NCBI GenBank assembly: GCA_964463175.1
Contig: CAYXBJ010000126.1
Location: forward strand, 940 to 64,939
DNA from: an uncultured bacterium
Lineage (GTDB): Bacteria > Methylomirabilota > Methylomirabilia > Rokubacteriales > DASRDR01
Length of the DNA: 64,000 bases
Direction: 5' to 3'
Shown here in pieces: positions 23,643 through 40,958 of this stretch. The position numbers and the translations under genes are program-made. Position 1 is the stretch's first letter, and every line of letters starts with the position of its first letter. The notes beneath the pieces were generated by a model. That model saw only the letters and a list, made by a program, of their open reading frames with translations. It was not told where the DNA came from and made no database searches.

Positions 23643-23649
23643 GGGAGGC

Positions 23650-24573
23650 TTACCCCGTCTTGGGATCGAGAACGTCCCGGAGCCCGTCCCCGAGCAGATT
23701 GAACCCGAGACTCACCACGAGGATCGCGATCCCGGGAACCGTGGCGACCCACCACTGGTCGAGGAGAAACCGCCGGCCCGAGGCGATCATCGCCCCCCAC
23801 TCAGGGGCGGGCGGCTGGGCGCCGAGACCCAGAAAGCCGAGCCCGGCGGCGGTGAGGATGATCCCGGCCATGTCGAGACCGACGCGGACGATCAGCGACG
23901 ATGTGCAGAGCGGCACGACGTGCCCAAGCACGATGCGGAGCGGTCCGGCGCCCTGCAGGCGGATCGCCGCGATGAAGTCACTGTTCCGGATCGTGATGGT
24001 CTCTGCGCGCGCCACGCGCGCATACGGCGGCCAGGCGGTACAGGCGATGGCGATGACGGCGTTCTCGATGCCCGGCCCGAGGGCCGAAACAAAAGCCAGC
24101 GCGAGGATCAAACGCGGGAAGGCCAGGAACACGTCGGTGACACGCATCAGCATCGTGTCCGCCCAGCCGCCGAGGTACCCGGCGGCGGTGCCGATGAGGA
24201 GCCCTGTCGGGGCGACCATCACGACGACCAGGCCGACGATCACCAGCGTGATGCGCGAGCCGTAGAGCACGCGCGTGTAGATGTCCCGCCCGAGCTCATC
24301 CGTCCCGAACCAGTACTCGGCGTTCGGCGGCCGAAGACGCTGGCTCAGGTCCTGGGTCACCGGTGATCGGTGAGTCAGGTACGGGACGAACACCGCGATG
24401 AGGACGAGGGCGACTAGGACGCCGAGTCCGGCCATCGCGAGCGGGTTCCGGCGAAAGGTGAGCCACGAGACGTACGTCTGGCCGAGACGGGCCTGCGCGC
24501 GGGACGCGGGCGTCTCGGCGAGGAGCCAGGCTCGCCAGGGGCGACGCGCCGCCACCGTGCCGCCAGTCGTCAT
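23650..24573 (-). CDS. dppC: Peptide ABC transporter permease
   Basis: FGTDELGRD, DVFLAFP, AAGLGFLGLG, PEWGAMI. Confidence 0.92.
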   Translation of the reverse strand: MTTGGTVAARRPWRAWLLAETPASRAQARLGQTYVSWLTFRRNPLAMAGLGVLVALVLIAVFVPYLTHRSPVTQDLSQRLRPPNAEYWFGTDELGRDIYTRVLYGSRITLVIVGLVVVMVAPTGLLIGTAAGYLGGWADTMLMRVTDVFLAFPRLILALAFVSALGPGIENAVIAIACTAWPPYARVARAETITIRNSDFIAAIRLQGAGPLRIVLGHVVPLCTSSLIVRVGLDMAGIILTAAGLGFLGLGAQPPAPEWGAMIASGRRFLLDQWWVATVPGIAILVVSLGFNLLGDGLRDVLDPKTG

Positions 24574-25637
24574 CGGGCGCGCGGGTCCACCAGGCGGTAG
24601 AGAAGGTCGGAGAGAAGGTTCAGCGTGATGAAGATCGTCCCGACGACGATCGTGCCCCCGAGGACGGCGTTCATGTCCGCGTTGAGGAGCGAATTCGTGA
24701 TGTACTGTCCGAGCCCCGGCCAGGCGAAGACCGTCTCGGTCAGGACCGAGCCCTCCAGCAAATTCGCATAGGAGAGGGCGACGACCGTGATCAACGGCAC
24801 CAGCACATTCCCGAAGGCGTGCCTCCACACGACCCGTCGCTCGGACAGTCCCTTGATCCGGCCGGTCGTGACGTACTCCTGTCCGAGCTCGGCCAGCATG
24901 AAGCTCCGGGTCATCCGCGCCAGATAGGCGAGGGAAAAGTAGCCCAGGAGCGATGCCGGCAGGATGACGTGGCGGAACGCGTTGCCGAAGACCTCCCACT
25001 CCCCCGCCAGCGCCGAGTCGAAGAGGATCACGCCGGTCACCGTCGGGACGAGATCGTCGAACGCCACATCGAGCCGCCCCGGTCCAGCCACCCAGTCGAG
25101 TCGCGCGTAGAAGACGAGCAGGCCCATGAGACCGAGCCAGAAGACCGGGACCGAGTAGCCGAAGAGGCTCACCACGCGGATGGCCTGATCGATCCACCGG
25201 CCGCGCCGCACCGCAGCGATCACCCCGAGGGGGATACCGAGCGCCGCGCCGATGAACGTCGCCACCGTCGCCAGCTCGAGCGTGGCCGGGAACACCCGAC
25301 GGATGTCGACGAGGACCGGATTGGAGGTCAGAACCGAGCGCCCGAAATCTCCCGCGAGGACCTTGCGAAGGTAGATCCAGAACTGCTGCCAGAGAGGGAG
25401 ATCCAGCCCGAGCTCGCGCTTGACGCGCTCGTACACCTCGACTGGCGCGCGGTCCCCCACCGCCGCCAGCACTGGGTCGATCGGGACGACGCGCCCGATC
25501 AGAAAGGTGACGAGCAGGAGTCCGAGGAAGGTGAGGGCGACCGTCCCGGCGATCCGCGTCACCAGCCACAGGACGCGAACCGGGAGCGAGGTCGCCCTCG
25601 CTCCCGGCGGAAGCGTCCGGGCCGGCGCGCCGGTCAC
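24570..25637 (-). CDS. dppB: Peptide ABC transporter permease
   Basis: GDFGRS, FPATLELA, HVILPA, EYVTTGRIKGL, TETVFAWPGLG. Confidence 0.92.
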   Translation of the reverse strand: MTGAPARTLPPGARATSLPVRVLWLVTRIAGTVALTFLGLLLVTFLIGRVVPIDPVLAAVGDRAPVEVYERVKRELGLDLPLWQQFWIYLRKVLAGDFGRSVLTSNPVLVDIRRVFPATLELATVATFIGAALGIPLGVIAAVRRGRWIDQAIRVVSLFGYSVPVFWLGLMGLLVFYARLDWVAGPGRLDVAFDDLVPTVTGVILFDSALAGEWEVFGNAFRHVILPASLLGYFSLAYLARMTRSFMLAELGQEYVTTGRIKGLSERRVVWRHAFGNVLVPLITVVALSYANLLEGSVLTETVFAWPGLGQYITNSLLNADMNAVLGGTIVVGTIFITLNLLSDLLYRLVDPRAR

Positions 25638-25663
25638 CGCAGCGCGGTCGCCCGCGGGGTCAG

Positions 25664-27241
25664 CTACTTCTTGATCCCGGCGTACAGGTTGTTCTCGAAG
25701 CTCGGGCCGATGACGAAGCCGTCCACGTTCTTCCCGTGGGCCGCGACCTCGATCTGCTGGAACATGATGATGAATGGTGAAACGCGCTGGTGCTCGCGCT
25801 GGATCGCCTGGTACATGGCCTCACGCTTCTTGGCGTCCCGCTCCCTCGCGGCCGCCGCCGTCTGCTTGGTCATGTCCGGGATGTCCCAGCTGTTCCGCCA
25901 GGCCAGCGTCTTCGACTTCGTCGCGTCGGTGTTGTCGACGTTCATCGCGAATGTCTCGGCGTTGCTGTGGGGATCTTGGTAGTCCGGCCCCCACTGGAGA
26001 AGCATCACGTCGTGGTTGCGAGCTCGGTACTTCGTGATGACCTGCTTGCCGTCCCCGGGAAGCAGCTCGAGCTTGATCCCGGCCTTGGCCCAGCTTGCCT
26101 GGATCGCCTGTGCGATGTCGGTGTTGGGCGACGTGTTGCGGACGTCCATCGTCACGCTGAAGCCATCAGGCAGGCCAGCCTTGGCGAGGAGCGCCTTGGC
26201 CTTGGCGAGGTCGAACTTGTAGGGCTTGTCGTCGATGGCGCCCAGGAAGCCCTTGGGCAGGAAGGACTGATGGACGACGTAACTCCCACGCAGGATGTTC
26301 TCCTCGATGCCAGCGTAGTCGACCAGCCACTTGAGCGCCTCGCGCACCTCGGGCTTGGCGAGGTTCGGGTTCTTCTGGTTGACGCTGACGTACCAGATGG
26401 AGCCCTTCCGGGCCTGTTGGGTCACGATGTTGGCATTGCCCTTGATCGCGTCCAACTGGTCCTTGGTCAGGTCGCGAGCGTAGTCGATATCCCCCTTCTC
26501 GAGGAGGAGCCGCTGGCTGGCGGGCTCGGCCACGTGGCGCACGACGACCCGGCGCGGGATCGCCTTCGTCCCCTGGTAGTTGTCGTTCCGCTCGAGGACG
26601 TAGGAGTCGTTGGCCTTCCAGCTGATCAGCTTGAACGGTCCCGAGCCCGCCGAGTTGGTCTTGAGCCACTCGTTCCCGAAGTCACCGTTCTGCTCGTGAG
26701 CCTGGACGGTCTTCATGTCTACGATGCCGCCGATGACCGCCGTCAGGCAGTAGTAGAAGAACGTCGGCGCGACCTGGTCCCCCGTCTCGACGACGAGCGT
26801 GGAGTCGTCGGTCGCCCGGATCTTCTCCTTGGCGTTGTCCTTGGTGAAGCCGAACTGGGTCAGGATGAACCCGGGCGTCTTGTTCATGATCACGGCCCTC
26901 TGGAGCGAGTAGGCCGCGTCCTGCGCCGTCACCGGATTGCCCGAGGCGAACTTAATGCCCTTCTTCATCTTGAAGGTGTAGGTCTTGCCGTCGGCGCCGA
27001 CTGACCAGCTCTCGGCCAGCTCGCCCTTGAGCTTGCTGACGTCGTTCAGGTCGTACGCGATGAGGCGCTCGTAGATGTTGCCGGTCACCTCGCTACCCGA
27101 GAACTCGAACGACTCGGCGGGATCCAGCGAGATGATGTCGTCGATCTGCTTGGCCATGACGACCGTGTCCTTGGGTGTCGCCGCCAGCGCGGGACCGGCG
27201 AGCAGGACCATCGCCGCGATCAGCCAGGTGAATCTCTTCAT
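25664..27241 (-). CDS. dppA: Peptide/nickel ABC transporter substrate-binding protein (family 5)
   Basis: Signal peptide MKRFTWLIAAMVLLAGPALA, SLDPAES, LAESWSV..DGKTYTF, AGSGPFKL. AGGAG RBS. Confidence 0.93.
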   Translation of the reverse strand: MKRFTWLIAAMVLLAGPALAATPKDTVVMAKQIDDIISLDPAESFEFSGSEVTGNIYERLIAYDLNDVSKLKGELAESWSVGADGKTYTFKMKKGIKFASGNPVTAQDAAYSLQRAVIMNKTPGFILTQFGFTKDNAKEKIRATDDSTLVVETGDQVAPTFFYYCLTAVIGGIVDMKTVQAHEQNGDFGNEWLKTNSAGSGPFKLISWKANDSYVLERNDNYQGTKAIPRRVVVRHVAEPASQRLLLEKGDIDYARDLTKDQLDAIKGNANIVTQQARKGSIWYVSVNQKNPNLAKPEVREALKWLVDYAGIEENILRGSYVVHQSFLPKGFLGAIDDKPYKFDLAKAKALLAKAGLPDGFSVTMDVRNTSPNTDIAQAIQASWAKAGIKLELLPGDGKQVITKYRARNHDVMLLQWGPDYQDPHSNAETFAMNVDNTDATKSKTLAWRNSWDIPDMTKQTAAAARERDAKKREAMYQAIQREHQRVSPFIIMFQQIEVAAHGKNVDGFVIGPSFENNLYAGIKK

Positions 27242-27307
27242 GCACGGCTCCTTTCGGTGTTGACGCCGGTCCAGGAAGGCCCGGTCCCGGGCGAAGTCTT
27301 TTGAGGC

Positions 27308-27336
27308 ATGATCGGGGCGGCCCGACGGCGTGTCAA
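27308..27336 (-). promoter_or_regulatory. Probable sigma70 promoter of the dpp operon
   Basis: TTGACA-N17-GATCAT on the minus strand, about 65 nt upstream of dppA. Confidence 0.5.
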
Positions 27337-27605
27337 GCGCGACGCCCGTCACCCCGTGGCCCGGCCCGCCTGCAGACCATCGGCCATCGCAGCCTCGCGC
27401 GACGGGCCGGAGCCGCCGTGGCCGGGCCTGTCCAGCCATGGACGTGACCCGGGCCGAGAGCGGTCGGGCCGGCAGGCCGCGTCCCACCGGACCGGGCGAT
27501 GCGGCCCCGATGGGCTGCGGTCCTGGCGCGCTTCGCTCGGGGAGCGCATCATGGTTGGGCTGCGCCAACGGCGGGCCGGCGTCCGGCTGGCGGCAGGGGG
27601 AGCCA

Positions 27606-28577
27606 ATGATCACGCAGGACCAGCTCGACCAGGCGCGTGCCGTCATCAAGGGGCACGTCCACCGCACGCCGCTCCTCTCGGTCGCGAGCCTCGGCACGCG
27701 ATGCGGCGTCCGGCTGCACGTGAAGTGCGAGAACCTCCAGAAGACGGGCTCCTACAAGCCGCGCGGCGGGCTCAACCGGATCGCGCGGCTCAGTGCCGAG
27801 GAGAAGCGCCGCGGGGTCATCGTCATGTCGGCCGGCAACCTCGCCCAGGGCGTGGCCTATGCCGCGCGGCAGGCAGGCGTGCGGTGCTGGGTGTCGATGC
27901 TCGAGACGGCATCCGCCGCGAAGATCCAGGCGGTGCGTGGCTACGGCGCCGAGGTCGTCCTGCACGGCGACCGCGCGACCTGGTTCGATCGGGTGGACGA
28001 GCTGCGCGCCCAGTCGGGGGCGGTGCTCGTCGATGCCTGGGCCGACGAGGCCCTCGTGGCCGGTTACGGATCGATCGGCAGCGAGATCCTCGAGGACCTC
28101 CCCGACGTGGAGGCGGTGGTGGTGCCCGTGGGCGGAGGCACCCTGATCTCCGGCATCGCCACCGCGATCAAGCTCAGCCGGCCGGACGTGCGCGTGGTCG
28201 GCGTGGAATGCACGTCGGGGAGGCTCGTGCGCGATTCGGTCGCGGCGGGCCGGCCGCTGCAGATCACGCGGCCGCCAAGCATCGCCGACGGCCTCGGATC
28301 CCCGCGGACGAGCGCCCTGGTCGTGGAGACGGTGAGGCGATACGTCGACGACCTGGCCGTGGTGTCCGACGAGGAGATCCACGCGGCGATGCACGATCTG
28401 CTCGAGCGCGGGAAGCTCCTCGTCGAGGGAGCGGGAGCGGCGGCCGTCGCCGCCCTCCTCGCCGGGCGGACGGAGCGCCAGAGCGGCCGGAGCGTCGTCG
28501 CGGTCCTGAGCGGAGGCAACGTGGACGTCGCCCGCCTCCAGCAGGCGCTCGGGCGGGCCGCGGGCGGCGCTGCATGA
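27606..28577 (+). CDS. PLP-dependent threonine/serine dehydratase (catabolic type, no regulatory domain)
   Basis: RTPLL, KCENLQKTGSYK.RG, SAGNLAQG, VPVGGGTL, IADGL, EGAGA, LSGGNVD. Confidence 0.9.
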   Translation: MITQDQLDQARAVIKGHVHRTPLLSVASLGTRCGVRLHVKCENLQKTGSYKPRGGLNRIARLSAEEKRRGVIVMSAGNLAQGVAYAARQAGVRCWVSMLETASAAKIQAVRGYGAEVVLHGDRATWFDRVDELRAQSGAVLVDAWADEALVAGYGSIGSEILEDLPDVEAVVVPVGGGTLISGIATAIKLSRPDVRVVGVECTSGRLVRDSVAAGRPLQITRPPSIADGLGSPRTSALVVETVRRYVDDLAVVSDEEIHAAMHDLLERGKLLVEGAGAAAVAALLAGRTERQSGRSVVAVLSGGNVDVARLQQALGRAAGGAA

Positions 28578-28665: not shown

Positions 28666-29325
28666 ATGCGCGGCCTTCAGCTCGCCGGCGCGGGCCTTCG
28701 TCCCCTGCGCGTGCTGTGCCTCGGCGCCCACTGTGACGACATCGAGATCGGCTGCGGCGGCACGATTCTCACCATGGCGCGCCAGCATCCCCGTCTGGCC
28801 GTGGAGTGGATCGTGCTGAGCGGCGACGACGAGCGCGCCCGCGAGGCCCAGCGCTCCGCCGACGCGTTCCTGTCAGACGTCGCGGAGCGCCGGCTGACGG
28901 TGGAGCGGTTCCGCGACGGCTACCTCCCCTACCAGGGGGAGCGTCTCAAGGACTACTTCGAGTCCCTCAAGAGGCGGGATGACCCCGACCTCGTCTTCGT
29001 GCCCTACCGGAAAGACTGGCACCAGGACCACCGGTTCATCGCCGAGCTCGCCTGGAGCACGTTTCGGGACCACCTGATCCTGGAATACGAGACGCCGAAG
29101 TACGATCCCGAGCCCGATGCGGCGCCAAACCTCCTGGTGCCGATCGACGACGACGTCGCCGAGGCCAAGGTGCGGCACCTGCTCGACGCCTACCCGTCAC
29201 AGGCGAGCCGGCCGTGGTTCGCCCGCGACGTCTTCCTGGGCGCGCTGCGTCTCCGCGGGATCCAGGCCCGGGTCCGGTTCGCCGAGGCGTTCTACGCGCG
29301 GAAGATGGTCCTGACCGGCCGGTGA
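28666..29325 (+). CDS. PIG-L/LmbE family deacetylase
   Basis: GAHCDDIEIGCGG zinc motif, HQDH, LEYE.PKYD, QASR, AEAF. Confidence 0.9.
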   Translation: MRGLQLAGAGLRPLRVLCLGAHCDDIEIGCGGTILTMARQHPRLAVEWIVLSGDDERAREAQRSADAFLSDVAERRLTVERFRDGYLPYQGERLKDYFESLKRRDDPDLVFVPYRKDWHQDHRFIAELAWSTFRDHLILEYETPKYDPEPDAAPNLLVPIDDDVAEAKVRHLLDAYPSQASRPWFARDVFLGALRLRGIQARVRFAEAFYARKMVLTGR

Positions 29326-29373
29326 CTCGCCTCACCGCGCCCGCGAAGCGAGGTGAGACGCGTGGGAACGCGT

Positions 29374-30210
29374 CTACGCGCCCCGATCGCTGCGCGCCAA
29401 CCCGGGCGGCGCCTCAGTGGGCGTGAGCGGACCCTCGCCGGTCGGGCGCCAAATCTTCCAGGGCGTCCTCTGGGCGGCCTCCATCTCCTGCAGCACCTGC
29501 CAGTCCCTCGGCGTGTCCATGCATGCCCAGAACCCGTCGTGCGCGTGGGCGAAGAGCTGCCGCTCGGATACGAGGCGCGGGAACAGACCGTCGACCAGAT
29601 CCTCACCGGGAGCCAGCCACTCGAAGATCTCGGGCCGGAACACGAAGAAGCCCCCGTTGACCCGGAGGCCGCACTCCGCCGCCGAGCGCACGCTCTCCAC
29701 CAGCCCCCGGCGATCCGCGAGGACGAGATGGTGAGTCGAGGGCGGGCGCACCGTGATCAGGCCGCCCAGCGCGCCGCTCGCCTGGAACCGCGCGATGAAG
29801 GTCGGGAGGTCGAGGTCGGACAGCCCGTCGGCGTAGTTGGCGAGGAACGTCGCTCCATCGAGATACCCCCGAACGGCCCGGAGGCGCTCGCCGATGCTGG
29901 CGTGGAGGCCGGTCGGGACGAGGGTGACGGTCGCTTCGCCGTGGACATCGTGCCGGACCCGTACCCGGCGCACGCCGCCGGTCAGCGACTCCACGGCGAC
30001 AGGGTCCAGGTCCCGCAGGAAATAGTCCGCGATCCGGTGCCCGCCGTGCCCCAGGCACACGACGAACTCTCGGTGCCCGTGGTGCGTGTACCAGCGCATG
30101 AGGTGCGTCAGGATGGGCTGGCCACCGATCGGCACGAGAGGCTTCGGCACGCCGGGGAGAGACGCCTGCAGGCGAATCCCCTGCCCGCCGCAGAACAGGA
30201 CGACCGTCAC
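29374..30210 (-). CDS. rfbF: Glucose-1-phosphate cytidylyltransferase-like nucleotidyltransferase
   Basis: LFCGGQG.RL, PKPLVPIG, NYADGLSD, VNGGFFVF, HDGFW.CMDT.RD. Confidence 0.85.
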   Translation of the reverse strand: MTVVLFCGGQGIRLQASLPGVPKPLVPIGGQPILTHLMRWYTHHGHREFVVCLGHGGHRIADYFLRDLDPVAVESLTGGVRRVRVRHDVHGEATVTLVPTGLHASIGERLRAVRGYLDGATFLANYADGLSDLDLPTFIARFQASGALGGLITVRPPSTHHLVLADRRGLVESVRSAAECGLRVNGGFFVFRPEIFEWLAPGEDLVDGLFPRLVSERQLFAHAHDGFWACMDTPRDWQVLQEMEAAQRTPWKIWRPTGEGPLTPTEAPPGLARSDRGA

Positions 30211-30270
30211 GATGCCGTTCGGCGCCTGGAAGTCACCGCGGATTCAGTCGCGCTCGCCTGGCCGCGACGC

Positions 30271-30801
30271 TCAGCCATGGAAATCCGGGAAAGACCGGTC
30301 GCGGTCGGAGACGAGACGGACGCACTCGGGCCACGGAATGGCGAACGCCGGGTCGTCCCAGCGGACGCCCCGCTCGGCGTCCGCCCGGTAGGACTCCGAC
30401 ATCTGGTACGTGACCTCGGTGCCGTCCAGGAGCGTCTGGAAGCCGTGTGCCATTCCCTCGGGGACGTACAGCATCCGGTAAGATCCCTCGCGGAGCTCCA
30501 CCGCGAAGTGCTGCCGGAAGGTAGGCGAGTGAGGCCGGAGGTCGATGATCACGTCGTGGACGGCGCCACGGACACAGCGCACCAGCTTCGCCTCCTGATG
30601 AGGCGCGCCTCGATAGTGCATCCCGCGCACCGTGCCCCGGTGCTCGGTGAAGGACACGCTGCACTGCACGAGGGCCGGGTTGAGGCCCCGCGCGGCGAAC
30701 TCCTCGCGGCACCACGTGCGCGCGAAGAATCCTCGGACGTCCCGATGCGGCTCGAGCTCCACGGTGAACGCCCCGGTCAGCGGGGTCGGCGTGAACACCA
30801 C
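30271..30801 (-). CDS. rfbC: NDP-4-keto-6-deoxyhexose 3,5-epimerase (RmlC family)
   Basis: DVRGFFART, RGMHY, KLVRC.RG, DLR, GMAHGFQTL, GVRWDDP. Start GTG 30801, 7 nt after TATGCT (the track starts at 30813). Confidence 0.92.
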   Translation of the reverse strand: MVFTPTPLTGAFTVELEPHRDVRGFFARTWCREEFAARGLNPALVQCSVSFTEHRGTVRGMHYRGAPHQEAKLVRCVRGAVHDVIIDLRPHSPTFRQHFAVELREGSYRMLYVPEGMAHGFQTLLDGTEVTYQMSESYRADAERGVRWDDPAFAIPWPECVRLVSDRDRSFPDFHG

Positions 30802-30881
30802 GGCTGCGAGCATACACCGAAGCCCCTCCGCGCGCCGCGAGGTGGACGCGCGCGCGCTGCGGCCGGCTCCGCGGCCGTGCG

Positions 30882-32435
30882 GTGACGGCGATCGGGCCCC
30901 CCGGCGAGCTGAGCGAGCCGCTCTCCGGCCGCACGTGGGAGCCGGCGACGATTCGCCGCCAGTGGCAGCGACGCGCCGCCGTCTATGGAGGCGCCGGCGT
31001 CGGGCGGGGCGACCTGGTTTTCCTGCACCACGGCAACACCCTCGAGTTCTTCGCCGACCTGCTGGCGCTCTGGTCGCTCGGAGCCGCCGCCGCGCCCGTG
31101 GACCCGCGACTCACGGGCTTCGAGATCGAGGCGCTGGCGCGGGCCACGCGGCCGCGGGCGACGCTGTGGCCGTCCCGGCCGCCGGCCGCCGTCGCGGCGA
31201 CGCTCGACGGGCTCGGCGCCGCGATCCTGGCAACGCCCAGGGCTGACGATCTCGGGGACGCTCCCGCTGACGCGGGCCATGCGCTCGAGAGCCTTGCCCC
31301 GGATGCGGATGCGCTCGTTCTGTTCACGTCCGGGACGACGGGCTCGCCGAAGGCCGTGGTCCACACGCACCGGTCGCTCCAGGCTCGGTGGACCGCCCTC
31401 CGGGCGCACGTCGGCCTGGACGACCTCCGTCGCACCCTCTGCCTCCTGCCCACGCACTTCGGCCACGGGCTCATCTGCAACGCCCTCTACCCCTGGCTGG
31501 GCGGGCAGCGCGTGGCTCTGCTCCCGCCCTTCAGATCCGACGTGATCCTCCAGCTCGGCGCCGTCGTGGACGAGCACGAGATCACCTTCCTCTCGTCCGT
31601 GCCGGCGCTCTGGCGGCTCGCCCTTCGCGTCGCCAGAGCGCCGCGCCGCGGGACCCTGAGGCGCGTCATCTGCGGGTCCGCGCCGCTGCCGGCCGTGATG
31701 TGGCGCGACATCGGCGAGTGGACGAGGACGGCGGCCGTGTCCAACGTCTACGGTCTCACCGAAACGGCCAGCTGGGTGGCGGGATCCGCGCCCGGCACCG
31801 CGCCGGAGGACGGCCTCATCGGCCATCCGTGGGGCGCGACGGTGCGAATCGGCGCCGAGCCGCCGACAGCCGCCGATGATCCGCGCGGCCGCGAGGCGGG
31901 AGCGCCCGATCAGGTGGGGCTCGTCTGGCTCCAGACGCCCGCGCTCATGCGCGGCTATCTCGGGCGCGACGATCTCACCGCCGACACGGTTCGACACGGG
32001 TGGTTCAGGACCGGCGACCTCGGATGCCTGGATTCCACGGGACGCCTCCATCTCCGGGGGCGAGAGCGAGATGAAATCAACCGCGGCGGGCTCAAGGTGT
32101 ACCCGTCGGACATCGAGGCCGTGGTGGAGCAGTTCGATGGCGCGCTCGACAGCTGCGCCTTCGGCTACGCGGGCGAGACCGGGGGCGACGAGGTGGCGCT
32201 CGCCGTCGTGCTGCGCGCCACCGACGTCGCCACGCTGCGCCGTCTCCACGCCTGGGTCCGGGAACGCCTGGCCGCGTACCAGCTGCCGCGGCGCTGGTTC
32301 GTCGTCGACGAGATCCCGCGCACCTCCCTCGGCAAGCCCCGGCGCGCCCAGATGGCGGCGCGCTGCGCGGATCTCCGGGCCGTGGATCCTCGCGATCTCG
32401 AGATGGACCACAGCGGAGGGCCGTGTGGCGCCTGA
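30882..32435 (+). CDS. AMP-forming acyl-CoA/acyl-ACP ligase
   Basis: FTSGTTGSPK, NVYGLTE, FRTGDLG, INRGG.KVYP..IE, TSLGK. Followed directly by an ACP. Confidence 0.9.
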   Translation: MTAIGPPGELSEPLSGRTWEPATIRRQWQRRAAVYGGAGVGRGDLVFLHHGNTLEFFADLLALWSLGAAAAPVDPRLTGFEIEALARATRPRATLWPSRPPAAVAATLDGLGAAILATPRADDLGDAPADAGHALESLAPDADALVLFTSGTTGSPKAVVHTHRSLQARWTALRAHVGLDDLRRTLCLLPTHFGHGLICNALYPWLGGQRVALLPPFRSDVILQLGAVVDEHEITFLSSVPALWRLALRVARAPRRGTLRRVICGSAPLPAVMWRDIGEWTRTAAVSNVYGLTETASWVAGSAPGTAPEDGLIGHPWGATVRIGAEPPTAADDPRGREAGAPDQVGLVWLQTPALMRGYLGRDDLTADTVRHGWFRTGDLGCLDSTGRLHLRGRERDEINRGGLKVYPSDIEAVVEQFDGALDSCAFGYAGETGGDEVALAVVLRATDVATLRRLHAWVRERLAAYQLPRRWFVVDEIPRTSLGKPRRAQMAARCADLRAVDPRDLEMDHSGGPCGA

Positions 32436-32724
32436 TCGGGCGGCGCTCCTGCGAGACCTCCGCGGGCTCATCACCCGGAGCACGCCGAGCCTGACCGGGA
32501 TCCTCGGGGACAATGCCCTGCTGATCAGCTCCGGCGTACTGGAGTCGGCGACGCTGGTCGACGTGGCCCTGTGGGTCGAGGACCACGTCGGCACGGAGAT
32601 CGATCTGGGAGCGTTCGATCTGGCCACCGAATGGGACTCGCTCAACGCGATCGTGGACTTCGTCGAGCGACGCACCGGACGGGCGGCACGATCGGCGGCC
32701 GAGGGCGCGTCCGACCGTGTATGA
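32425..32724 (+). CDS. Stand-alone acyl carrier protein
   Basis: LISSGVLESATLVDVALWVEDHVG.EI four-helix carrier pattern, Ser at 32545 (LES instead of the usual LDS), WDSLNAIVDFV. Overlaps the ligase stop. Confidence 0.8.
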   Translation: MAPDRAALLRDLRGLITRSTPSLTGILGDNALLISSGVLESATLVDVALWVEDHVGTEIDLGAFDLATEWDSLNAIVDFVERRTGRAARSAAEGASDRV

Positions 32725-33820
32725 GGTCGTGCCGTATCGTCGCGAATTCCGCGCCCAGGTCACCACGCTCCAGCACCATCTGTGGCGTGGCGGCCGGACC
32801 CGGAACACGGCGTATCTGGCGTGGAAGTACGAGCAGAACCCGTACCTGCCCGATCCCCTCATCTATCTGGCTCTCTATCGAGGACGTGTCGTGGGCATGC
32901 GCGGCGCCTTCGGATCGTGCTGGGAGGCCGGCCCGGATCGCCTCGTCGTGCCGTGCGCGGACGACTTCGTCATCGCGCCGGCACACCGCCAGCGCGGCCT
33001 GGTCGGACAGATCATGAGCGCGACGCTCGCCGATCTGGCCGCGCGGGGCCATCGCGTGGCGTTCAGTCTCAGCGCAGGTCCCGCCACGCTCGCGGGCTCC
33101 CTGGTCGGCGGGTGGAGATCCGTCGGCTCCGTCCGAGAGGTCTGCCGGGGCGGGCCGCCCCGCGCAGGCGTCCGGCGTCAGGCGAGCCGCGTGATCGCGT
33201 GGCTCGCGAGCCGCGGCTGGGACGGCGGCGTCGCCCGCCTCTGGCAGCGACCGTTCCGACGGCTTGATCGCGCCGCGCCACGCACGCCGTCCGGCGCCGT
33301 CTGGTGTGCCGCCGCGCCACGCCCCGAGGCAATGGCGGACGTCGTGGCCCGACAGTCCTACGACGGCCGGATCCGTCACGTGCGCGACGCGCGGTATCTC
33401 GCCTGGCGATTCGCGAATCCGCTCCACGAGTACCGCTTCCTCTTCGCGGGGGCGGACCGGCTCGCGGGCTACCTGGCTCTGCAGGCGTACCGGCCGTTCC
33501 CCGATCGGGGCGTCAACATCGTGGACTGGGAGGCGAGTGACCCCGCCGTCCGGCGCGATCTCCTCCGCGCGGCCATCGACTGGGGTGGCTTCGGCCAGCT
33601 GAGCCTGTGGTCCATGAGCCTCGATGCCGACACCCGAAGGCTGGTGGAGCACGCCGGCTTCGTGCCGGCCGCCCGCGAGCGCCTGGTCCGTCAAGGCCCG
33701 GCCCTCCTCGTGCGCGTGATCGGAAGCCCCCCGGACCGGGGCGCGCCCACGCTCGGCGCGCGGCCCCTCCTGGATCCAGGCGCGTGGGACCTGCGCATGC
33801 TCTACTCCATGGCGGGCTGA
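32717..33820 (+). CDS. GNAT-family acyltransferase (tandem GNAT, FemAB/Acetyltransf_6-like)
   Basis: [23 protein letters not shown] acyl-CoA motif A, second domain YLAWRF.NP..EY. Overlaps the ACP. Confidence 0.8.
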
Positions 33821-33824
33821 GCCT

Positions 33825-34907
33825 ATGGGTTCCACTCCGCGCCGACCGGGCCGCCTGCTCGTCACTGGCCATCGCGGCTACATCGGGGCCGTGCTGGTGC
33901 CCATGCTGGAGAGCCTCGGTCACGAGGTGGTCGGCGTCGATTCGGAGCTATACCGCGGCTGCGACTTCAGACCCGTCGCCGCGGACCGGATCCCGATGCT
34001 CGCGGCCGACGTGCGCGATCTCCGCGCGGCGGATCTCGGCGGCGTCGAGGGCGTCATCCATCTGGCCGCCCTCTCCAACGATCCCCTGGGCGATCTCGAT
34101 CCCGCGGTGACCGACGAGATCAACCGCGCCGCCTCGGTGCGCCTGGCCCGGCTGGCCCGCGACGCCGGGGTCGCCCGCTATCTCTTCTCGTCGTCCTGCA
34201 GCAACTACGGGGCGGCCGGCGACACGCCGCTGGACGAGGACGGCCCTCTTCGGCCACTCACGCCCTACGCGATCTCCAAGGTCCAGGTGGAGCGCGAGGT
34301 CGCCGAGCTCGCCGACGCGGGGTTCAGTCCGACCTTCCTCAGGAACGCGACCGCCTACGGGGTCTCCCCGCGGCTCCGCCTGGATCTGGTCGTCAACGAT
34401 CTGACCGCCTGGGCCACGGTCACCGGACGCGTGCGCGTGCTCAGCGACGGCACGCCCTGGCGGCCGCTCGTCCACGTCGAGGACATCGCGCGCGCCTTCG
34501 TCGCGATCCTCTCGGCTCCTCGCGCGGCAGTCCACAACCAGGCGTTCAACGTGGGCCCTCCGGGCGAGAACTATCGGGTCCGCGACCTGGCGGAGATGGT
34601 CCGGAGCGAGGTGGCCGGCTCCGAGATCGAGTACGCGCCCGGCGGCGGGCCGGATCCCCGGAGCTATCGCGTCGACTTCGGGCGGATGGCCCGCGCCGTC
34701 CCGGACTTCGCGCCGCGGTGGACGGTGCGGGACGGCATCGCCCAGCTCGTCCGCGCTTTCCGGCACGCGGACCTCACCGCGGACGACCTCGAGTCCCCGC
34801 GCTACCGGCGGGTCCGCCGGGTGCGGCAGCTCCTGACCGACGGGACGCTGGACGCCCGTCTCCGCCGGCGTCATCCCGCACCGGCGACCTCGGGGGGCGC
34901 GCCGTGA
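33825..34907 (+). CDS. NAD-dependent epimerase/dehydratase (extended SDR)
   Basis: [50 protein letters not shown]. Confidence 0.92.
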
Positions 34908-36160
34908 GCGCGACGACGGCGACGAGCAACGGCGGCGCCTGCCGCTTCTGCCGCGAGCCGCTGCGCCACACGCTCGTCGACCTGGGGGTCTCGCCGCTCT
35001 GCGAGTCCTTCGTCTCGCCGGGGGGGCTCAACGCGATGGAGCCCTTCTACCCGCTGCACGCCTACGTCTGTCATGGCTGCTGGCTCGTCCAGGTCCACGA
35101 GTACGTGCGCCCCGAGACCATCTTCACGGAGTACGCGTACTTCTCGTCCTACTCGGACTCCTGGCTTGCCCACGCCGCCGCCTACGTCGACCGGATCGTG
35201 TCGCGACTCGGGCTCGGGCCGCAGAGCCTGGTGATCGAGGTCGGCAGCAACGACGGATACCTGCTCCAGTACGTCGTCGCCCGCGGCATCCCGGCGCTGG
35301 GCGTCGAGCCGGCGCGGAACGTGGCCGCCGCCGCGATCGTGCGGGGCGTGACGACGATCACCGAGATGTTCGGGCGGCGGCTCGCCGAGACGCTGGTCGC
35401 CGAGGGACGGCGGGCGGACCTCCTGATCGGCAACAACGTGCTCGCCCAGGCGCCCGATCTCGACGACTTCGTCGGGGGCCTGGCCCTCGTGCTGGCCCCC
35501 ACCGGCGTCCTCACGCTGGAGTTCCCGCACCTCCTGCGCCTTCTCGAGGAAACCCAGTTCGACACCATCTACCACGAGCACTTCTCGTACTTCTCCCTGG
35601 GGACCGCGGCGCGGATCCTCCGCGCCCACGGGCTCGAGGTGTTCGACGTCGAGGAGCTCCCGACCCACGGAGGCTCGCTGCGCCTGTACGTCCAGCGCGC
35701 CGGGCTGGGAAGCCGTCCCGTCACGGACCCCGTGACGGCCCTGCTCGAGCGGGAGAAGGCCACGGGGCTCGAGGGGCTCGCGCCGTACGCCCGGTTCCAG
35801 GCTCAAGTCCGGGAGGCCAAGCTCGCGCTGCTCGAGTTCCTCATCGGCGCGCGACGGGCCGGGAAGCGGGTGGCCGGCTACGGGGCGCCCGGCAAGGGCA
35901 ACACCCTCCTGAACTACTGCGGGATCGGCAGCGATCTCGTCGAGTACACGGTGGATCGCAATCCTTACAAGCACGGGAAGTTCCTCCCGGGGAGCCGGAT
36001 CCCGATCTTCGCGCCCGATCACGTCATGGCGACGCGACCCGATTACCTCCTCATTCTCCCGTGGAACCTGCGGGCCGAGATCATGGCGCAGATGGCCGGG
36101 ATCCGCGCCTGGGGCGGACGCTTCGTGATCCCGATTCCCCGCGCGACCGTCTACCCATGA
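34904..36160 (+). CDS. NDP-hexose C-methyltransferase (Zn-binding, TcaB9/NovU-type)
   Basis: CRFC...CHGC zinc ligands, EVGSNDG SAM motif, [28 protein letters not shown]. Confidence 0.93.
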
Positions 36161-37440
36161 CGGGGAGCGTCGGCGCGGAGCTGCACCGCTGGATCCGGGA
36201 TCTCTACCCGATCGGGCGGAGCCTGACCGGGGACGGCGTCCGGGAAACGCTCCGCCGGCTCGGCGAGCTCCTTCCCCTCACGGTGCGCGAGGTGCCGTCG
36301 GGAACGCCGGTCCTCGACTGGACCGTGCCCTCCGAGTGGAACCTGCGGGACGCGTGGATCGAGAACTCCCGGGGCGAGCGCGTCGTCGACGCGCGCCGCT
36401 CGACGCTTCACGTGGTCGGCTACAGCCGGCCGGTGCGCGCGCGTCTCAGCCTGGCCGAGCTCCGGCCGCACCTGTTCTCGCTGCCCGCGCATCCCGACTG
36501 GATCCCTTACCGCACCTCGTACTACGCGGACGGCTGGGGGTTCTGCCTGAGCGAGCGACAGCTCGCCGCGCTTACCGACGACCGGTACGAGGTCTGCATC
36601 GACGCGACACTCCAGCCCGGTAGCCTCACCTACGGCGAGTGCGAGCTCCCGGGCGAGATCGGGGACGAGGTCCTCGTCTCGACGCACGTGTGCCATCCGT
36701 CCCTGTGCAACGACAACCTCTCGGGCATCGTGATCGCCGCGTTCCTCGGGCAGCGCCTGGCGGCCCGACGGCGGCGCCACACCTACCGCCTCCTGTTCGT
36801 CCCCGGCACCATCGGGTCCATCACGTGGCTCGCGCTGAACGAGTCCCGGCTCGACCGGATCGCGCACGGCCTGGTGCTGACCTGCCTCGGCGACGGCGGA
36901 TCGCCCACCTACAAGCGGAGCCGGCGGGGTGATGCGGCGATCGACCGGGCCGCCGCGCACGTGCTCGGCGCGCGAGGGCCCCATCAGGTCCTCGAGTTCA
37001 CCCCGTGGGGCTACGACGAGCGCCAGTACTGCTCGCCCGGGTTCGATCTGCCGGTCGGCTGCCTGATGCGCACGCCCCACGGGCAGTTCGCGGAGTACCA
37101 CACCTCCGCCGACGATCTCGACTTCGTGCAGCCGGAGGCCCTCGCAGACTCCCTCGAAGTCGCGACGGCCATCCTCGACCTGGTCGACCGGAACCGGGTC
37201 CTCGTGAACCGCCAGCCGAAGGGCGAGCCTCAGCTCGGCCGCCGCGGCCTCTATCCCGCGGTGGGCGGAGGGCCCCAGCGAGCCGAGCAGCTCGCCCTCC
37301 TGTGGGTCCTCAATCTGTCCGACGGACGGCACAGCCTGCTGGACATCGCCGAGCGCGCGGGAATTCCGTTCGATGCCGTCGACCGGGCCGCGGGCGCGCT
37401 CCTCGCGCACGGTCTTCTCGGCGAACGGCCCTCCGCGTGA
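36157..37440 (+). CDS. DUF4910/DUF2172 aminopeptidase(M28)-like protein with C-terminal wHTH
   Basis: RSLTGDGVR.TL, VP.EWN, HVVGYS, PY.TSYY, HVCHPSLCNDNLSG, PGTIGSI, DERQYCSPGFDLP, EYHTS.D, PQLGRRGLY. Confidence 0.9.
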   Translation: MTGSVGAELHRWIRDLYPIGRSLTGDGVRETLRRLGELLPLTVREVPSGTPVLDWTVPSEWNLRDAWIENSRGERVVDARRSTLHVVGYSRPVRARLSLAELRPHLFSLPAHPDWIPYRTSYYADGWGFCLSERQLAALTDDRYEVCIDATLQPGSLTYGECELPGEIGDEVLVSTHVCHPSLCNDNLSGIVIAAFLGQRLAARRRRHTYRLLFVPGTIGSITWLALNESRLDRIAHGLVLTCLGDGGSPTYKRSRRGDAAIDRAAAHVLGARGPHQVLEFTPWGYDERQYCSPGFDLPVGCLMRTPHGQFAEYHTSADDLDFVQPEALADSLEVATAILDLVDRNRVLVNRQPKGEPQLGRRGLYPAVGGGPQRAEQLALLWVLNLSDGRHSLLDIAERAGIPFDAVDRAAGALLAHGLLGERPSA

Positions 37441-37479: not shown

Positions 37480-40134
37480 TCAGGAGATCGCGGTCCCGTC
37501 CAGGCAGCGCATGATCATCGCGGCCGACGCCGTCGTCTCGCGCGTGAGGCACGTGATGTGGGTGCCCGGGACCACGTGCACATCGACCCGAGGCGCAACG
37601 GACCGCCACCACGCGGCCGCGTCGTCCGCGGGGATCGGGTCCTCCGCGGGCCAGAGGAGCGTCACCGGCCCGCCATAGGGACGCGGGACGTACTCCGCGT
37701 CGATCCGGAGATAGTCGGCTCGCAAGCGCTCGCGGAGCCGCTCCGACTCGGCCTCGGGGCCCGTCTCCGCGGCGGCGGCGTTCGATCTTCGTCGCCACGG
37801 CATGCGACGCGCGCCCCGGCGCATCCCATCCCGGAGGACGCGCAGCCGGTCCCGCGGCGGGGTCGCGCGGAGCCGGAGGAATCCGTCCCGCAGCACGGCG
37901 AACAGATCCGCCTCGCGCGCCGGCCCCCCGCCAGCCAGCGCGCACGCGCCGCCCACGATCCGCCGGAGCCAGCCGAATCCGACTCCGATCGGGAGCGCGG
38001 CCACCACAAGCACGCGCTCGACCTCCCCGCCGGTCGCCGCGAGGAGGCGCGCGGTCTCGAGGGCCACCAGTCCGCCGTTGCAGAGACCCCCCAGCCGGTA
38101 CGGACCCTGCGGGCGCGCCCGAAGGATGTCCCCCAGGTGTCGCGTGGCCATGGCCTCGTAGGTCGGCGGGGTCGGGCTCCCATCGGCGCCGCAGGGCGGG
38201 AGCGCCAGGAACGGCTGGTCCGCTCCCAGGCGGCGCGCGAGGTTCTGGCAGTAGAGGCCCCCGCTCAGGTAGTCGCCGTGCAGGAAGAAGAGCGGCGTCC
38301 GACCCCCCGCCGGCTGGACCGGCACGAGCGTGTGGCGCGGAAGGCCGGCCTCGCGCTGCACCTCGTCGGCGAGCCGCCGGATCGTCGGGCTCCCGAGGAC
38401 GGCCGAGGCCGCGATGCCGCGCCCCAGCAACGCCTCGGCCTCCTGGAGCATCTCGACGCAGAGCAGCGAGTCGCCACCCAGGTCGAAGAAGTCGTCGAGC
38501 ATGCCGATCGGGCGCACGTGCAGGATCTCCGCCCAGAGGCTCGCGAGCTGGGCCTCGAGCAGCGAGCGTGGCGCGACCAGCGGCACGTCGAGGGATGGCC
38601 GGTGGCCACCCGGCGCGGGGAGCGCGCGCCGATCGAGCTTTCCGTTGGCGGTGAGCGGGAGGGCGTCGAGCAGCACGTAGGTCTCGGGAACCGCGAAGGC
38701 CGGCAGGCGCGCGGCCAGACGACGCCGCAGGGCGGAGACGGTGGGAGCCGGGCGCGTCGACGGGACGACGTAGGCCACGAGCGTCGGCTCGCCGTCCCGC
38801 TCCACCGGAGCCACTGCGGCCAGCTCCACGCCGTCGAGCTCGAGGAGCGCGCGCTCGACGTCCGCGACGGCCACACGATGTCCGTGGATCTTCGTCGCCG
38901 CGTCGACGCGCCCCAGGTGCTCGAGGCCACCGTCGGACCGGAGCCGGCCGAGGTCACCGGTGCGGTAGAGGCGCCGGCTCGGGTCGCGCGGATCGGGCGA
39001 GAACGCCGTGGCCGTGGCGTCCTCGCGGTGCCAGTACCCGACCGCGAGGTACCGGCTGCTGACGACGATCTCCCCCACCTCCCCCACCCCGCACGGCGCG
39101 GCGTCGGCCGCGAGGACCCGCACGTCCATGTCCTCGACCGCGTATCCTACGGGCACGACCCCGGCGGGCACGGGCGTCAGGGCGCCGACGAAGAACTGCC
39201 GGACGAGACCGCACTCCGTGGCGCCCAGTCCGTTCACCAGGCGCGCGTGAGAGGCAAATCGCTCCCGGTAGAGCTCGAGGTCGCGGACCGACGCCCGGTC
39301 ACCCTCGAGGCGGATGAGCCGCAGGGCGGGAAGCGCGACCCGGCTCGTCGCCACGCGACGGAACAGCGCGGGCACCGAGTGATAGATGGTGATCGCGCGC
39401 TCCCGGAGCCACGGCGCGATCGTCACGGCGCCCTCGCGCGTCACGTCCAGCGGGAACACGGCCGCGCCGTTCAAAAGAGCCCCGAAGAGGCTCGAGACGG
39501 CCCCGCTGAAGCTTGGCCCCTGGAGGAGAGTCAATCGGTCCTCGGCGGCGATCTCCAGGCTGTTCGTGTAACGCATGACGTTATGGAGGACGTTGCGATG
39601 GGCGTCGACGACGCCCTTCGGCCGTCCGGTGGAGCCCGACGTGTAGTAGATGTAGGCTCGCGCATCGGGGGCGATGGGAAGGGCGAGGTCCTCGTCGGAC
39701 GCGCTCCCGACCCGATCGAGGTCGAGCACCGGCACGGTTGGCGGGGTGACGGCGGCCGCCGTCCTCCCGGCGCGCGCATCCGCCAGGACTAGCCCCGCCC
39801 GGGTGTCCTGGACGAGGTCGGCGAGCTGCGCTTCCGGGTCCGCGGGGTCGAGTGGCGCGTAGAACTTCCCGGCCTTTAGAACCCCGAGGATCGCCGCGAC
39901 GAGCGGAGCGCCCTGGTTGACCAGGAGCGCGACAGGCTCCGGCTCCGTTCCCCGCGCGTCGACGATCGCGCGGGCGACGCGATTCGCCATGCGGTTGAGC
40001 GTCTCGTAGGACCAGGCATGCTCTCGGGTCGCGACCGCCAGTCGGCCCGGACCGCGGCGCACCTGCGCCTCGAAGCGGCGCGGGATGGACTGCTCGATGG
40101 CTTCCCGGCCGAACCGGACGAACGACGGCGCCAT
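37480..40134 (-). CDS. Stand-alone NRPS-like enzyme A-T-TE (no condensation domain)
   Basis: YTSGSTGRPKG, YRTGD, NGKLDR adenylation motifs. DFFDLGGDSL carrier (Ser codon 38467-38469). Thioesterase GPYRLGGLCNGG and distal His (PGTH). Confidence 0.92.
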   Translation of the reverse strand: MAPSFVRFGREAIEQSIPRRFEAQVRRGPGRLAVATREHAWSYETLNRMANRVARAIVDARGTEPEPVALLVNQGAPLVAAILGVLKAGKFYAPLDPADPEAQLADLVQDTRAGLVLADARAGRTAAAVTPPTVPVLDLDRVGSASDEDLALPIAPDARAYIYYTSGSTGRPKGVVDAHRNVLHNVMRYTNSLEIAAEDRLTLLQGPSFSGAVSSLFGALLNGAAVFPLDVTREGAVTIAPWLRERAITIYHSVPALFRRVATSRVALPALRLIRLEGDRASVRDLELYRERFASHARLVNGLGATECGLVRQFFVGALTPVPAGVVPVGYAVEDMDVRVLAADAAPCGVGEVGEIVVSSRYLAVGYWHREDATATAFSPDPRDPSRRLYRTGDLGRLRSDGGLEHLGRVDAATKIHGHRVAVADVERALLELDGVELAAVAPVERDGEPTLVAYVVPSTRPAPTVSALRRRLAARLPAFAVPETYVLLDALPLTANGKLDRRALPAPGGHRPSLDVPLVAPRSLLEAQLASLWAEILHVRPIGMLDDFFDLGGDSLLCVEMLQEAEALLGRGIAASAVLGSPTIRRLADEVQREAGLPRHTLVPVQPAGGRTPLFFLHGDYLSGGLYCQNLARRLGADQPFLALPPCGADGSPTPPTYEAMATRHLGDILRARPQGPYRLGGLCNGGLVALETARLLAATGGEVERVLVVAALPIGVGFGWLRRIVGGACALAGGGPAREADLFAVLRDGFLRLRATPPRDRLRVLRDGMRRGARRMPWRRRSNAAAAETGPEAESERLRERLRADYLRIDAEYVPRPYGGPVTLLWPAEDPIPADDAAAWWRSVAPRVDVHVVPGTHITCLTRETTASAAMIMRCLDGTAIS

Positions 40135-40918: not shown

Positions 40919-40958
40919 GTGGAATCCCGAAGTCCTCGGCGCGCCTCGTCCGGCGGGA

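Follow-up and report, generated by a model that had tools for sequence, protein, structure and literature searches.

We analyzed a 64,000-nucleotide (nt) stretch of DNA from an uncultured bacterium of the Rokubacteriales (contig CAYXBJ010000126.1, positions 940 to 64,939; hereinafter the window), in which a gene for a PIG-L/LmbE-family metal-dependent de-N-acetylase lies 5′ of three overlapping genes coding for an ANL-superfamily adenylate-forming ligase, a stand-alone carrier protein and a tandem-GNAT acyltransferase (hereinafter the trio). A sequence-only reading of this region had proposed a deacetylate-then-reacylate module comprising all four. We find that the trio indeed behaves as one unit, whereas the PIG-L protein is no dedicated partner of it: comparison across genomes shows the deacetylase to be a member of a neighboring core of sugar-biosynthesis genes. 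We favor, with moderate confidence, a reading in which two separable modules stand side by side, namely an acylation cassette of the adenylation-thiolation-GNAT (A-T-GNAT) type (30882–33820) and the sugar core, with the cassette providing an optional tailoring step at this locus. Deacetylation followed by re-acylation is partly supported here, as a candidate optional step and not as a built-in module. The evidence throughout is comparative, and nearly all the relatives are metagenome-assembled genomes (MAGs), in which absences are uncertain and some taxonomic labels seem to be in error.

The ligase, carrier and GNAT genes form a conserved unit

The trio is encoded on the forward strand by genes for the ligase (517 amino acids [aa]; 30882–32435), the carrier protein (99 aa; 32425–32724) and the tandem GNAT (367 aa; 32717–33820). 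The TGA stop codon of the ligase gene (32433–32435) and the GTG start codon of the carrier gene (32425) are placed such that the two genes overlap by 11 nt, and a GGAGG ribosome-binding site for the carrier, read directly from the DNA, is embedded in the 3′ end of the ligase gene (32415–32419), five nt 5′ of that GTG. The carrier gene, ending with a TGA at 32722–32724, in turn overlaps the GNAT gene, starting with a GTG at 32717, by 8 nt. A scan of one genome per prokaryotic species, seeded with an alignment of the GNAT, recovered 80 loci, 67 of them with enough upstream sequence; here and below, gene calls in relatives are based on third-position GC (GC3) and tblastn. A ligase orthologue (45–76% identity) adjoins the GNAT gene in 43 of these 67 loci and a carrier gene does so in 40, with 36 loci having the two together in the same order. 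The trio loci span more than 10 phyla, including Methylomirabilota, Acidobacteriota, Gemmatimonadota, Myxococcota, Binatota, Pseudomonadota and Latescibacterota. The distance from carrier stop to GNAT start has a median of 5 nt across loci, and on annotated contigs of relatives the called trio genes likewise overlap by 4–14 nt. Judged by this conservation, the coupling of the three genes is far beyond chance.

The same components also occur fused. Single open reading frames (ORFs) of the form carrier::GNAT (~470–490 aa) are found at five loci (L032, L043, L048, L051 and L057). An exhaustive profile search with the GNAT family retrieved 781 representative clusters (50% identity) at E<=1e-30; an N-terminal extension of ~100 aa is present in ~19 of the best 150 representatives, and all three extended representatives that we checked (P0135, P0224 and P0144) carry a PP-binding domain. 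One metagenome representative of 922 aa (P0167) combines AMP-binding, AMP-binding_C, PP-binding and GNAT domains in a single chain. By their domain matches, these fusions have a nonribosomal peptide synthetase (NRPS)-like A-T-GNAT architecture. As Rosetta-stone fusions, they argue strongly for an acyl-carrier, over free acetyl-coenzyme A (acetyl-CoA), as the predicted donor of the GNAT. Together, the conserved order, the invariant carrier serine, the modeled carrier fold and the fusions support the view that the three proteins act as a single unit for acyl transfer that depends on the carrier protein.

The ligase matches AMP-binding (PF00501, 2.5e-53) and AMP-binding_C (PF13193) and retains the core motifs of the ANL superfamily (TSGTTGSPK, YGLTE, FRTGD and the catalytic-lysine GK motif, SLGKPRR), to which it thus belongs. 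Its nearest solved structures are oxalate-CoA ligase, FadD13 and MatB. The aspartate of the FDxS motif, which binds the α-amino group in DltA- and NRPS-type adenylation domains, is absent; the segment LLPTHFGHG of the ligase aligns to LPLFHVHG of an oxalate-CoA ligase (5ie0). Because this aspartate is missing, the substrate is predicted to be a carboxylic acid without an α-amino group. The similarity is generic to oxalate, malonate and fatty-acid ligases, so we assign no specific substrate.

The carrier is PCP (peptidyl carrier protein)/DltC-like, and its motif reads SSGVLESATL. The earlier reading had singled out the LES, standing in place of LDS, as atypical. It is present, but not peculiar to the window protein: the serine is invariant in 47/47 orthologues, the preceding residue being D in 39, E in 7 and N in 1, and the glutamate is confined to the Rokubacteria/Methylomirabilota clade. 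On this alignment, LES is a conservative clade-specific D-to-E variant. PP-binding (PF00550) is matched by 20 of 23 carrier orthologues; the window's own protein lies below the Pfam threshold and gives weak DltC and OlsHI-acyl carrier protein (ACP) matches. A profile of the carrier family matches type II PCP and DltC structures at 3.5e-7 to 1e-5, and the AlphaFold2 (AF2) model (pLDDT, the predicted local distance difference test, 88.5) has a carrier fold with Ser41, the serine of VLES, at the N-terminus of helix II. Alignment and model together mark Ser41 as the predicted phosphopantetheine attachment site. The host genome has a single PF01648 match to a phosphopantetheinyl transferase gene (73.7 bits; G000:C160:21419-21697, locus L168); this one enzyme would have to serve the ACP of fatty acid synthase (FAS), the trio carrier and an adenylation-thiolation-thioesterase (A-T-TE) enzyme encoded elsewhere in the window.

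The AF2 model of the acyltransferase (pLDDT 84.5) shows two consecutive GNAT folds in one chain. Its best Foldseek matches, namely Eis-family proteins, the clavulanate tandem GNAT and N-myristoyltransferase (NMT), are all tandem GNATs (TM ~0.5–0.58, 10–16% identity, E ~1e-12 to 1e-10). Sequence matches are weaker: those to Acetyltransf_9 and Acetyltransf_17 are sub-threshold, and the profile match to Eis2 has E=0.005 over 43 residues. The protein is not a member of the Eis family proper, as it ends after the second GNAT domain at 367 aa with no SCP2-like third domain. In all 18 aligned homologues the chain terminates at one column, with the sequence W-D-x-R-M-L-Y-S-M-x-G (window 33800–33820), where the model has low confidence in the last three residues. 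NMT uses a catalytic C-terminal carboxylate, and by analogy the fixed end suggests a functional terminal carboxylate in this family too.

Two side observations concern the distribution of the family. On the GNAT tree (L004, L005 and L006), proteins from MAGs labeled Verrucomicrobiia and Methylomirabilia are near-identical (branch lengths ~0.03) and are adjoined by that of a 'Nitrosotalea' (archaeal) MAG, which indicates recent transfer or mis-binned contigs. In Acidobacteriota, serC-like (phosphoserine aminotransferase) and serA-like (phosphoglycerate dehydrogenase) genes lie downstream of the GNAT gene (L012, L015, L016, L018 and L019), probably as lineage synteny. All-versus-all clustering of the ORFs of the 80 loci for further conserved partners gave, beyond the trio, GT2 glycosyltransferases and the sugar core, only shadow ORFs and lineage-specific synteny.

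The PIG-L deacetylase is part of a sugar core

The PIG-L protein (219 aa; 28666–29325, forward strand) matches PF02585 (E=5e-14) with 53.3 bits against a cut-off of 28.2, placing it in the family. Its motifs AHCDD (residues 21–25) and HQDH (119–122) are invariant in seven orthologues, and among solved structures it is closest to deacetylases of the BshB type (6p2t and 2ixd). A metagenome scan seeded with an alignment of its orthologues retrieved 33 loci of at least 6 kb. In nearly all of them the PIG-L gene (46–56% identity) lies directly downstream of a gene for an RfbF-like nucleotidyltransferase, amid genes for a C-methyltransferase, an RmlC protein, a DUF4910 protein and a short-chain dehydrogenase/reductase (SDR), often with a GT2 glycosyltransferase and a Wzx-type flippase; ligase, carrier and GNAT genes of the trio occur in 0/33. 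A survey of 251 genomes of the phylum found the GNAT in 13 and a PIG-L orthologue in 32, with the GNAT missing from 25 of these 32. Within the 20 kb taken around each of 20 PIG-L genes, the core is present without the trio at 18 loci, the other two being in GNAT-positive genomes. The sequence-only reading had itself named the co-occurrence of PIG-L with the RfbF/C-methyltransferase core regardless of the trio as refuting it, and this is the pattern seen at all 33 metagenome and 18 of the 20 phylum loci. By its conserved neighborhood, the PIG-L protein belongs to the sugar core and not to the trio.

In the window, the core flanks and interrupts the series that runs from the PIG-L gene to the GNAT gene. 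Between the PIG-L and ligase genes, and on the reverse strand, lie those for the RfbF-like sugar-1-phosphate cytidylyltransferase (29374–30210; assigned by GC3 frame plot, TIGR02623 and 1tzf) and an RmlC-like nucleoside diphosphate (NDP)-4-keto-sugar epimerase (30271–30813; PF00908, E=1.7e-60). Immediately 3′ of the GNAT gene follow, on the forward strand, an extended SDR of the sugar-nucleotide epimerase/dehydratase type (33825–34907; PF01370, E=5e-45), an NDP-sugar C-methyltransferase with Zn-binding, methyltransferase and C-terminal domains (~34904–36160, start approximate; PF08421, PF13489 and PF08484) and a peptidase-like DUF4910/DUF2172/HTH_47 protein of modified-polysaccharide loci (36157–37440; PF16254, E=6e-109). 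A soluble GT2 glycosyltransferase without a transmembrane segment (41879–42937, reverse strand; PF00535) lies further downstream, and GT2 is the top recurring family around PIG-L loci. DUF4910 has been tied to modified-polysaccharide loci, some with ACP and aminosugar acyltransferases (PMC4000134).

The RfbF-like enzyme scores 162 bits with TIGR02623, below its cut-off, and its best solved match is the glucose-1-phosphate cytidylyltransferase 1tzf (2.9e-38, full length); the RmlC-like protein scores 148.8 bits with TIGR01221, just below cut-off. The full-length match of the nucleotidyltransferase to 1tzf disfavors an N-acetylhexosamine (HexNAc)-nucleotide route as the source of an acetamido group, toward which a weak LegB match of the SDR is the only hint. 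For the SDR, the closest matches are 6vo6 (a 'putative sugar-nucleotide epimerase/dehydratase') and models of the GalE and LegB types rather than a CDP-glucose 4,6-dehydratase, and the first committed step after the cytidylyltransferase may consequently differ from RfbG-type dehydration. An ArnC/ArnD-like arrangement, with the GT2 making a polyprenyl-phosphate-HexNAc for the PIG-L enzyme, is a weak candidate, as the GT2 proteins beside PIG-L or the trio have no transmembrane segment.

Further variation of the core was seen elsewhere. A same-genus genome has two PIG-L loci 21 kb apart (G241:C11, ~280.7 kb and ~302.0 kb; L171 and L172), one with the PIG-L gene beside an RmlC-like gene and the other beside an RfbF-like gene, neither with the trio. 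Two core-only loci (L152 6862–7785 and L141 6807–7784) have a gene of ~310 aa between those for DUF4910 and the C-methyltransferase, with a weak match to 2-oxoglutarate-Fe(II) oxygenases, that may code for a further tailoring enzyme of the core sugar.

Cassette and core associate non-randomly but facultatively

The two modules do meet more often than expected. In the phylum, seven genomes have both the GNAT and PIG-L, against ~1.7 expected (Fisher odds ratio 9.9, p=3e-4), and in six of these seven the two genes are at most ~5 kb apart. However, a PIG-L orthologue is present in only four of the 24 trio loci flanked on each side by 8 kb or more. When 'core nearby' is mapped as a label (13 rows) onto a maximum-likelihood tree of the GNAT, at least 9 changes are required, and only 3 of 500 shuffles gave so low a number; linkage to the core was therefore made or lost many times. 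On these counts, the association of trio and PIG-L is non-random yet facultative.

The arrangements themselves are varied. At one end are compact 10-gene clusters (as at L084) in which GT2, C-methyltransferase, RmlC, DUF4910, SDR, RfbF and PIG-L genes are divergent from those for ligase, carrier and GNAT, with nothing else included, and an operon with the order RfbF-PIGL-ligase-carrier-GNAT on one strand (L013). L007/L166 have PIG-L, GT2 and the trio without RfbF-like or C-methyltransferase genes. At three loci (L011, L029 and L052) a GNAT gene lies inside or beside the core with the ligase absent. In a Kiloniellaceae MAG (an alphaproteobacterium; L059 6669–11005), a row of three genes codes for a class I/II aminotransferase, for PIG-L fused to GT4 (PIG-L::GT4, 638 aa) and, directly downstream of this fusion, for a GNAT of the family, again with no ligase. 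This fusion is a distant one that was found by motif scan; a hidden Markov model of the PIG-L subfamily retrieved no additional orthologues in the GNAT loci. The L059 arrangement resembles a mycothiol/bacillithiol-type layout. In the surroundings of 50 core-less GNAT loci, glycosyltransferases are the sole recurrent neighbors (GT2 in 9 of 130 neighbors, GT1/GT4-type families 3–4 each, Glyco_trans_1_2 3), GT2 being the commonest neighbor class of the trio.

Proposed pathway and alternatives

For the acyl group, the acceptor and the order of steps, we infer the following scheme. The ligase would adenylate a carboxylic acid without an α-amino group and thioesterify it to phosphopantetheine on Ser41 of the carrier. 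The tandem GNAT would then take the acyl group from the carrier, in place of free acetyl-CoA, and hand it to a nucleophile; this would most likely be an amine of a glycoconjugate that the neighboring glycosyltransferase and sugar genes produce. Independently, the core (the RfbF-like enzyme with the adjoining PIG-L, SDR, RmlC-like, C-methyltransferase, DUF4910 and GT2 proteins) would make and install a C-methylated hexose-type sugar, with PIG-L removing an N-acetyl or related amide group whether the cassette is present or not. Where the core has acquired the cassette, as in the window genome, the amine exposed by PIG-L would be the most obvious acceptor, because the cluster has no aminotransferase, and facultative re-acylation would result. 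That the cassette acts on some product of this cluster is in our estimate fairly probable; that its acceptor is the very amine exposed by PIG-L is possible, though we regard it as doubtful. Equally tentative is the more general proposal that an A-T-GNAT system, free-standing or fused as in the 922-aa protein, N-acylates a PIG-L-exposed amine on a C-methyl-hexose glycoconjugate in Rokubacteria and several other soil phyla; this would be a process not previously described, with a lipid-A-like logic in which the folds are unrelated and both the carrier and the acid are dedicated ones.

Several observations weigh against this scheme. The glucose-1-phosphate-type RfbF probably points to a nitrogen-free NDP-hexose, which would leave no evident substrate for PIG-L. 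The GNAT retains an R-x-x-G loop compatible with CoA binding, and family GNATs are linked to the sugar core without a ligase at L011, L029 and L052, because of which the family may also accept other acyl donors. Most trio loci are without PIG-L or an aminotransferase within 10 kb, and there the acceptor need not be a sugar amine. The relatives all derive from uncultured MAGs, save for one distant Streptomyces match, and MAG incompleteness blurs absences at the genome level.

Each of the alternatives accounts for part of these data. Were the four genes a single pathway, in which PIG-L unmasks a sugar amine specifically for re-acylation by the GNAT with a carrier-borne acyl group, one would expect just such arrangements as the compact core-plus-trio clusters, the L013 operon, L166 with its PIG-L, GT2 and trio but no RfbF-like or C-methyltransferase gene, and the PIG-L::GT4 fusion beside a family GNAT in L059. 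The genome-level odds ratio fits as well, and, since the cluster is devoid of aminotransferases, no amine other than that of a deacetylated HexNAc is evident. Nonetheless we consider so strict a dependence unlikely: PIG-L accompanies the core at the many trio-less loci counted above, the GNAT is missing from most PIG-L genomes while PIG-L is present at few well-flanked trio loci, and in the window itself two opposite-strand genes place PIG-L outside the transcription unit of the trio. Such counts also speak against a mitomycin-like sequence of events. The mitomycin pathway comprises an acyl ligase (MitE), an ACP (MmcB), an ACP-dependent glycosyltransferase (MitB) and, as proposed, a deacetylase (MitC) (PMC8621148); by analogy, a glycosyltransferase would add GlcNAc to a carrier-tethered acid, PIG-L would deacetylate it on the carrier, and the GNAT would release or cyclize the product. 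All four protein classes are represented here, and L166 holds PIG-L, GT2, ligase, carrier and GNAT together; yet PIG-L and GT2 accompany the core mostly at loci devoid of ligase and carrier, most trio loci are without PIG-L, and no resemblance to genes for 3-amino-5-hydroxybenzoic acid or mitosane is seen here, which makes this pathway very improbable.

A looser possibility is that the trio has nothing to do with the sugar genes, its position being incidental, and makes an N-acyl amine, an N-acyl amino acid or a lipid, or acylates a protein amine in an Eis- or NMT-like manner. Most trio loci have mixed neighbors with no sugar-nucleotide genes, the acidobacterial ones adjoining serA/serC; the nearest folds, Eis and NMT, are acylators of protein or small-molecule amines; and the fixed C-terminus of the GNAT recalls the catalytic carboxylate of NMT. 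We nevertheless hold an incidental position to be rather improbable, since glycosyltransferases are the sole recurrent neighbor class, on the GNAT tree linkage to the core recurs nine or more times and is more clustered than shuffled labels are, the modules are co-located in nearly all genomes with both, and a GNAT alone is found within core operons in L011, L029 and L052. Least credible of all is a GNAT that works as an ordinary N-acetyltransferase dependent on acetyl-CoA, with a small ORF that is no functional carrier. The retained R-x-x-G loop and, for the 99-aa protein, the missing Pfam match and the faint DltC and OlsHI-ACP matches are in keeping with this notion, but it is countered by the invariant serine, the PP-binding matches of the orthologues, the confident carrier-fold model and the existence of carrier::GNAT and ligase::carrier::GNAT fusions.

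The tandem-GNAT family is large (~780 clusters) and, for its ligase and carrier partners, we found no characterized member; nearly all examples are in uncultured soil or sediment bacteria. A literature search for the trio found no paper, nor one of direct relevance on acyl-ACP-dependent GNATs acting on amino sugars or on Vibrio cholerae tetronate genes. The trio would be a simple three-protein system for acylation in which a GNAT draws on a carrier protein, a kind of donor seldom used in the superfamily. Separating it from the RfbF-PIGL-C-methyltransferase-DUF4910 core also sharpens the question of what role PIG-L and DUF4910 have in a seemingly nitrogen-free CDP-hexose pathway. In practice, PIG-L is best investigated together with the core, and the trio as a portable tailoring cassette.

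Gene map of the window

The window has a G+C content of 72% and derives from a genome of 5.73 Mb (193 contigs, 98% complete), and its nearest relatives are MAGs labeled Candidatus Rokubacteria/Methylomirabilota. Long spurious ORFs abound at such a G+C content, and genes were therefore assigned using GC3 together with Pfam and NCBIfam. A case in point is a 510-aa forward-strand ORF (29353–30885), which we rejected as a shadow of the reverse-strand RfbF-like and RmlC-like genes: GC3 follows the reverse-strand frame, the reverse-strand ORFs match NTP_transferase and RmlC, and the forward ORF has no family match. Its acceptance would falsely suggest one co-directional operon from PIG-L through GNAT. 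The distance from the end of the PIG-L gene to the start of the ligase gene is 1,557 nt.

The features on which the sequence-only reading was built, namely both overlaps within the trio, the VLES serine, the AHCDD and HQDH motifs and the 1.5-kb distance, were all recovered, and its statement that the cluster has no sugar aminotransferase also holds: Pfam and NCBIfam searches detected none from ~27 to 52 kb of the window.

Upstream of the PIG-L gene are a Ser/Thr dehydratase-like pyridoxal phosphate enzyme (27330–28577, forward strand) and, on the reverse strand up to 27697, genes of an Opp/Dpp-type peptide ABC transporter (SBP_bac_5, BPD_transp_1 and ABC_tran/oligo_HPY). Such transporter genes lie within ~10 kb of the trio in three loci (window 22797–27697; L081 16458–20879; L084 13118–20461), the GNATs of which are only 50–59% identical, which may reflect synteny or hint at a function. 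Downstream of the DUF4910 gene, the reverse strand codes for the A-T-TE enzyme (37480–40134) and a methyltransferase (40172–41131). The GT2 gene is followed by those for a GMC oxidoreductase, for a PaaK-like ligase and for a polytopic protein that has F5/8-type C domains.

Comparison with known systems

The precedents closest in logic are LpxC/LpxD, the teicoplanin pair and the mycothiol enzymes MshB, MshC and MshD; those closest in components are DltA/DltC, AsbC/D/E, BtrI/J/H and the mitomycin set. In lipid A biosynthesis, LpxC removes the N-acetyl group of a sugar and LpxD N-acylates the free amine from an acyl-carrier-protein thioester, the same chemical logic as proposed here. The components differ: LpxC does not have the PIG-L fold, LpxD is a left-handed β-helix and not a GNAT, and the acyl group comes from the housekeeping ACP of FAS, without a ligase of its own; moreover, the deacetylase of the present core is mostly found without the acyltransferase. 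In teicoplanin and A40926 biosynthesis, a PIG-L-family deacetylase (Orf2*/Dbv21) unmasks the amine of GlcNAc and an acyltransferase (Orf11*/Dbv8) re-acylates it. That acyltransferase uses acyl-CoA without ligase or carrier, and its acceptor is a glycopeptide; its obligate pairing with the deacetylase is not seen for the trio and PIG-L (0/33, 2/20 and 4/24 in the surveys above).

Mycothiol and bacillithiol synthesis (MshA/B/C/D and BshA/B/C) proceeds from a glycosyltransferase to a PIG-L deacetylase and then to formation of an amide on the amine of GlcN, MshD being a tandem GNAT. BshB-type structures are the nearest to the window PIG-L, and MshD gives a weak tandem-GNAT sequence match (E ~1). 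However, the present system has an ANL ligase, which is devoid of the amino-acid-binding aspartate, and a carrier in place of a Cys-tRNA-synthetase homologue, and there are no inositol or malate genes here and no thiol is implied. With the Dlt system the trio shares a stand-alone ANL ligase that would load a small dedicated carrier, the latter having profile matches to DltC structures; in contrast to Dlt, the trio ligase is predicted not to be of the amino-acid type, transfer would be by a cytoplasmic tandem GNAT, and DltB (MBOAT) and DltD were not found in the window cluster or its annotated relatives.

In the petrobactin (AsbC/AsbD/AsbE) and butirosin (BtrJ/BtrI/BtrH) pathways, an acid is activated, held on a dedicated carrier and transferred to nitrogen, on spermidine or an aminoglycoside amine, respectively. 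Neither AsbE nor BtrH is a GNAT, BtrJ belongs to the ATP-grasp enzymes, and we know of no A-T-GNAT-type fusions in these systems. The mitomycin enzymes differ in that the acid is glycosylated while tethered to the ACP and in having no GNAT among them, whereas the PIG-L and GT2 of the present core are mostly without a carrier. Eis and NMT share with the trio GNAT the overall two-GNAT fold, and NMT also the fixed C-terminal end; the trio GNAT differs in its predicted donor, an acyl-carrier protein and not acyl-CoA, and in having no SCP2-like domain. None of the systems compared shares the A-T-tandem-GNAT architecture, and the trio would in this respect be a new form of carrier-protein-dependent acylation.

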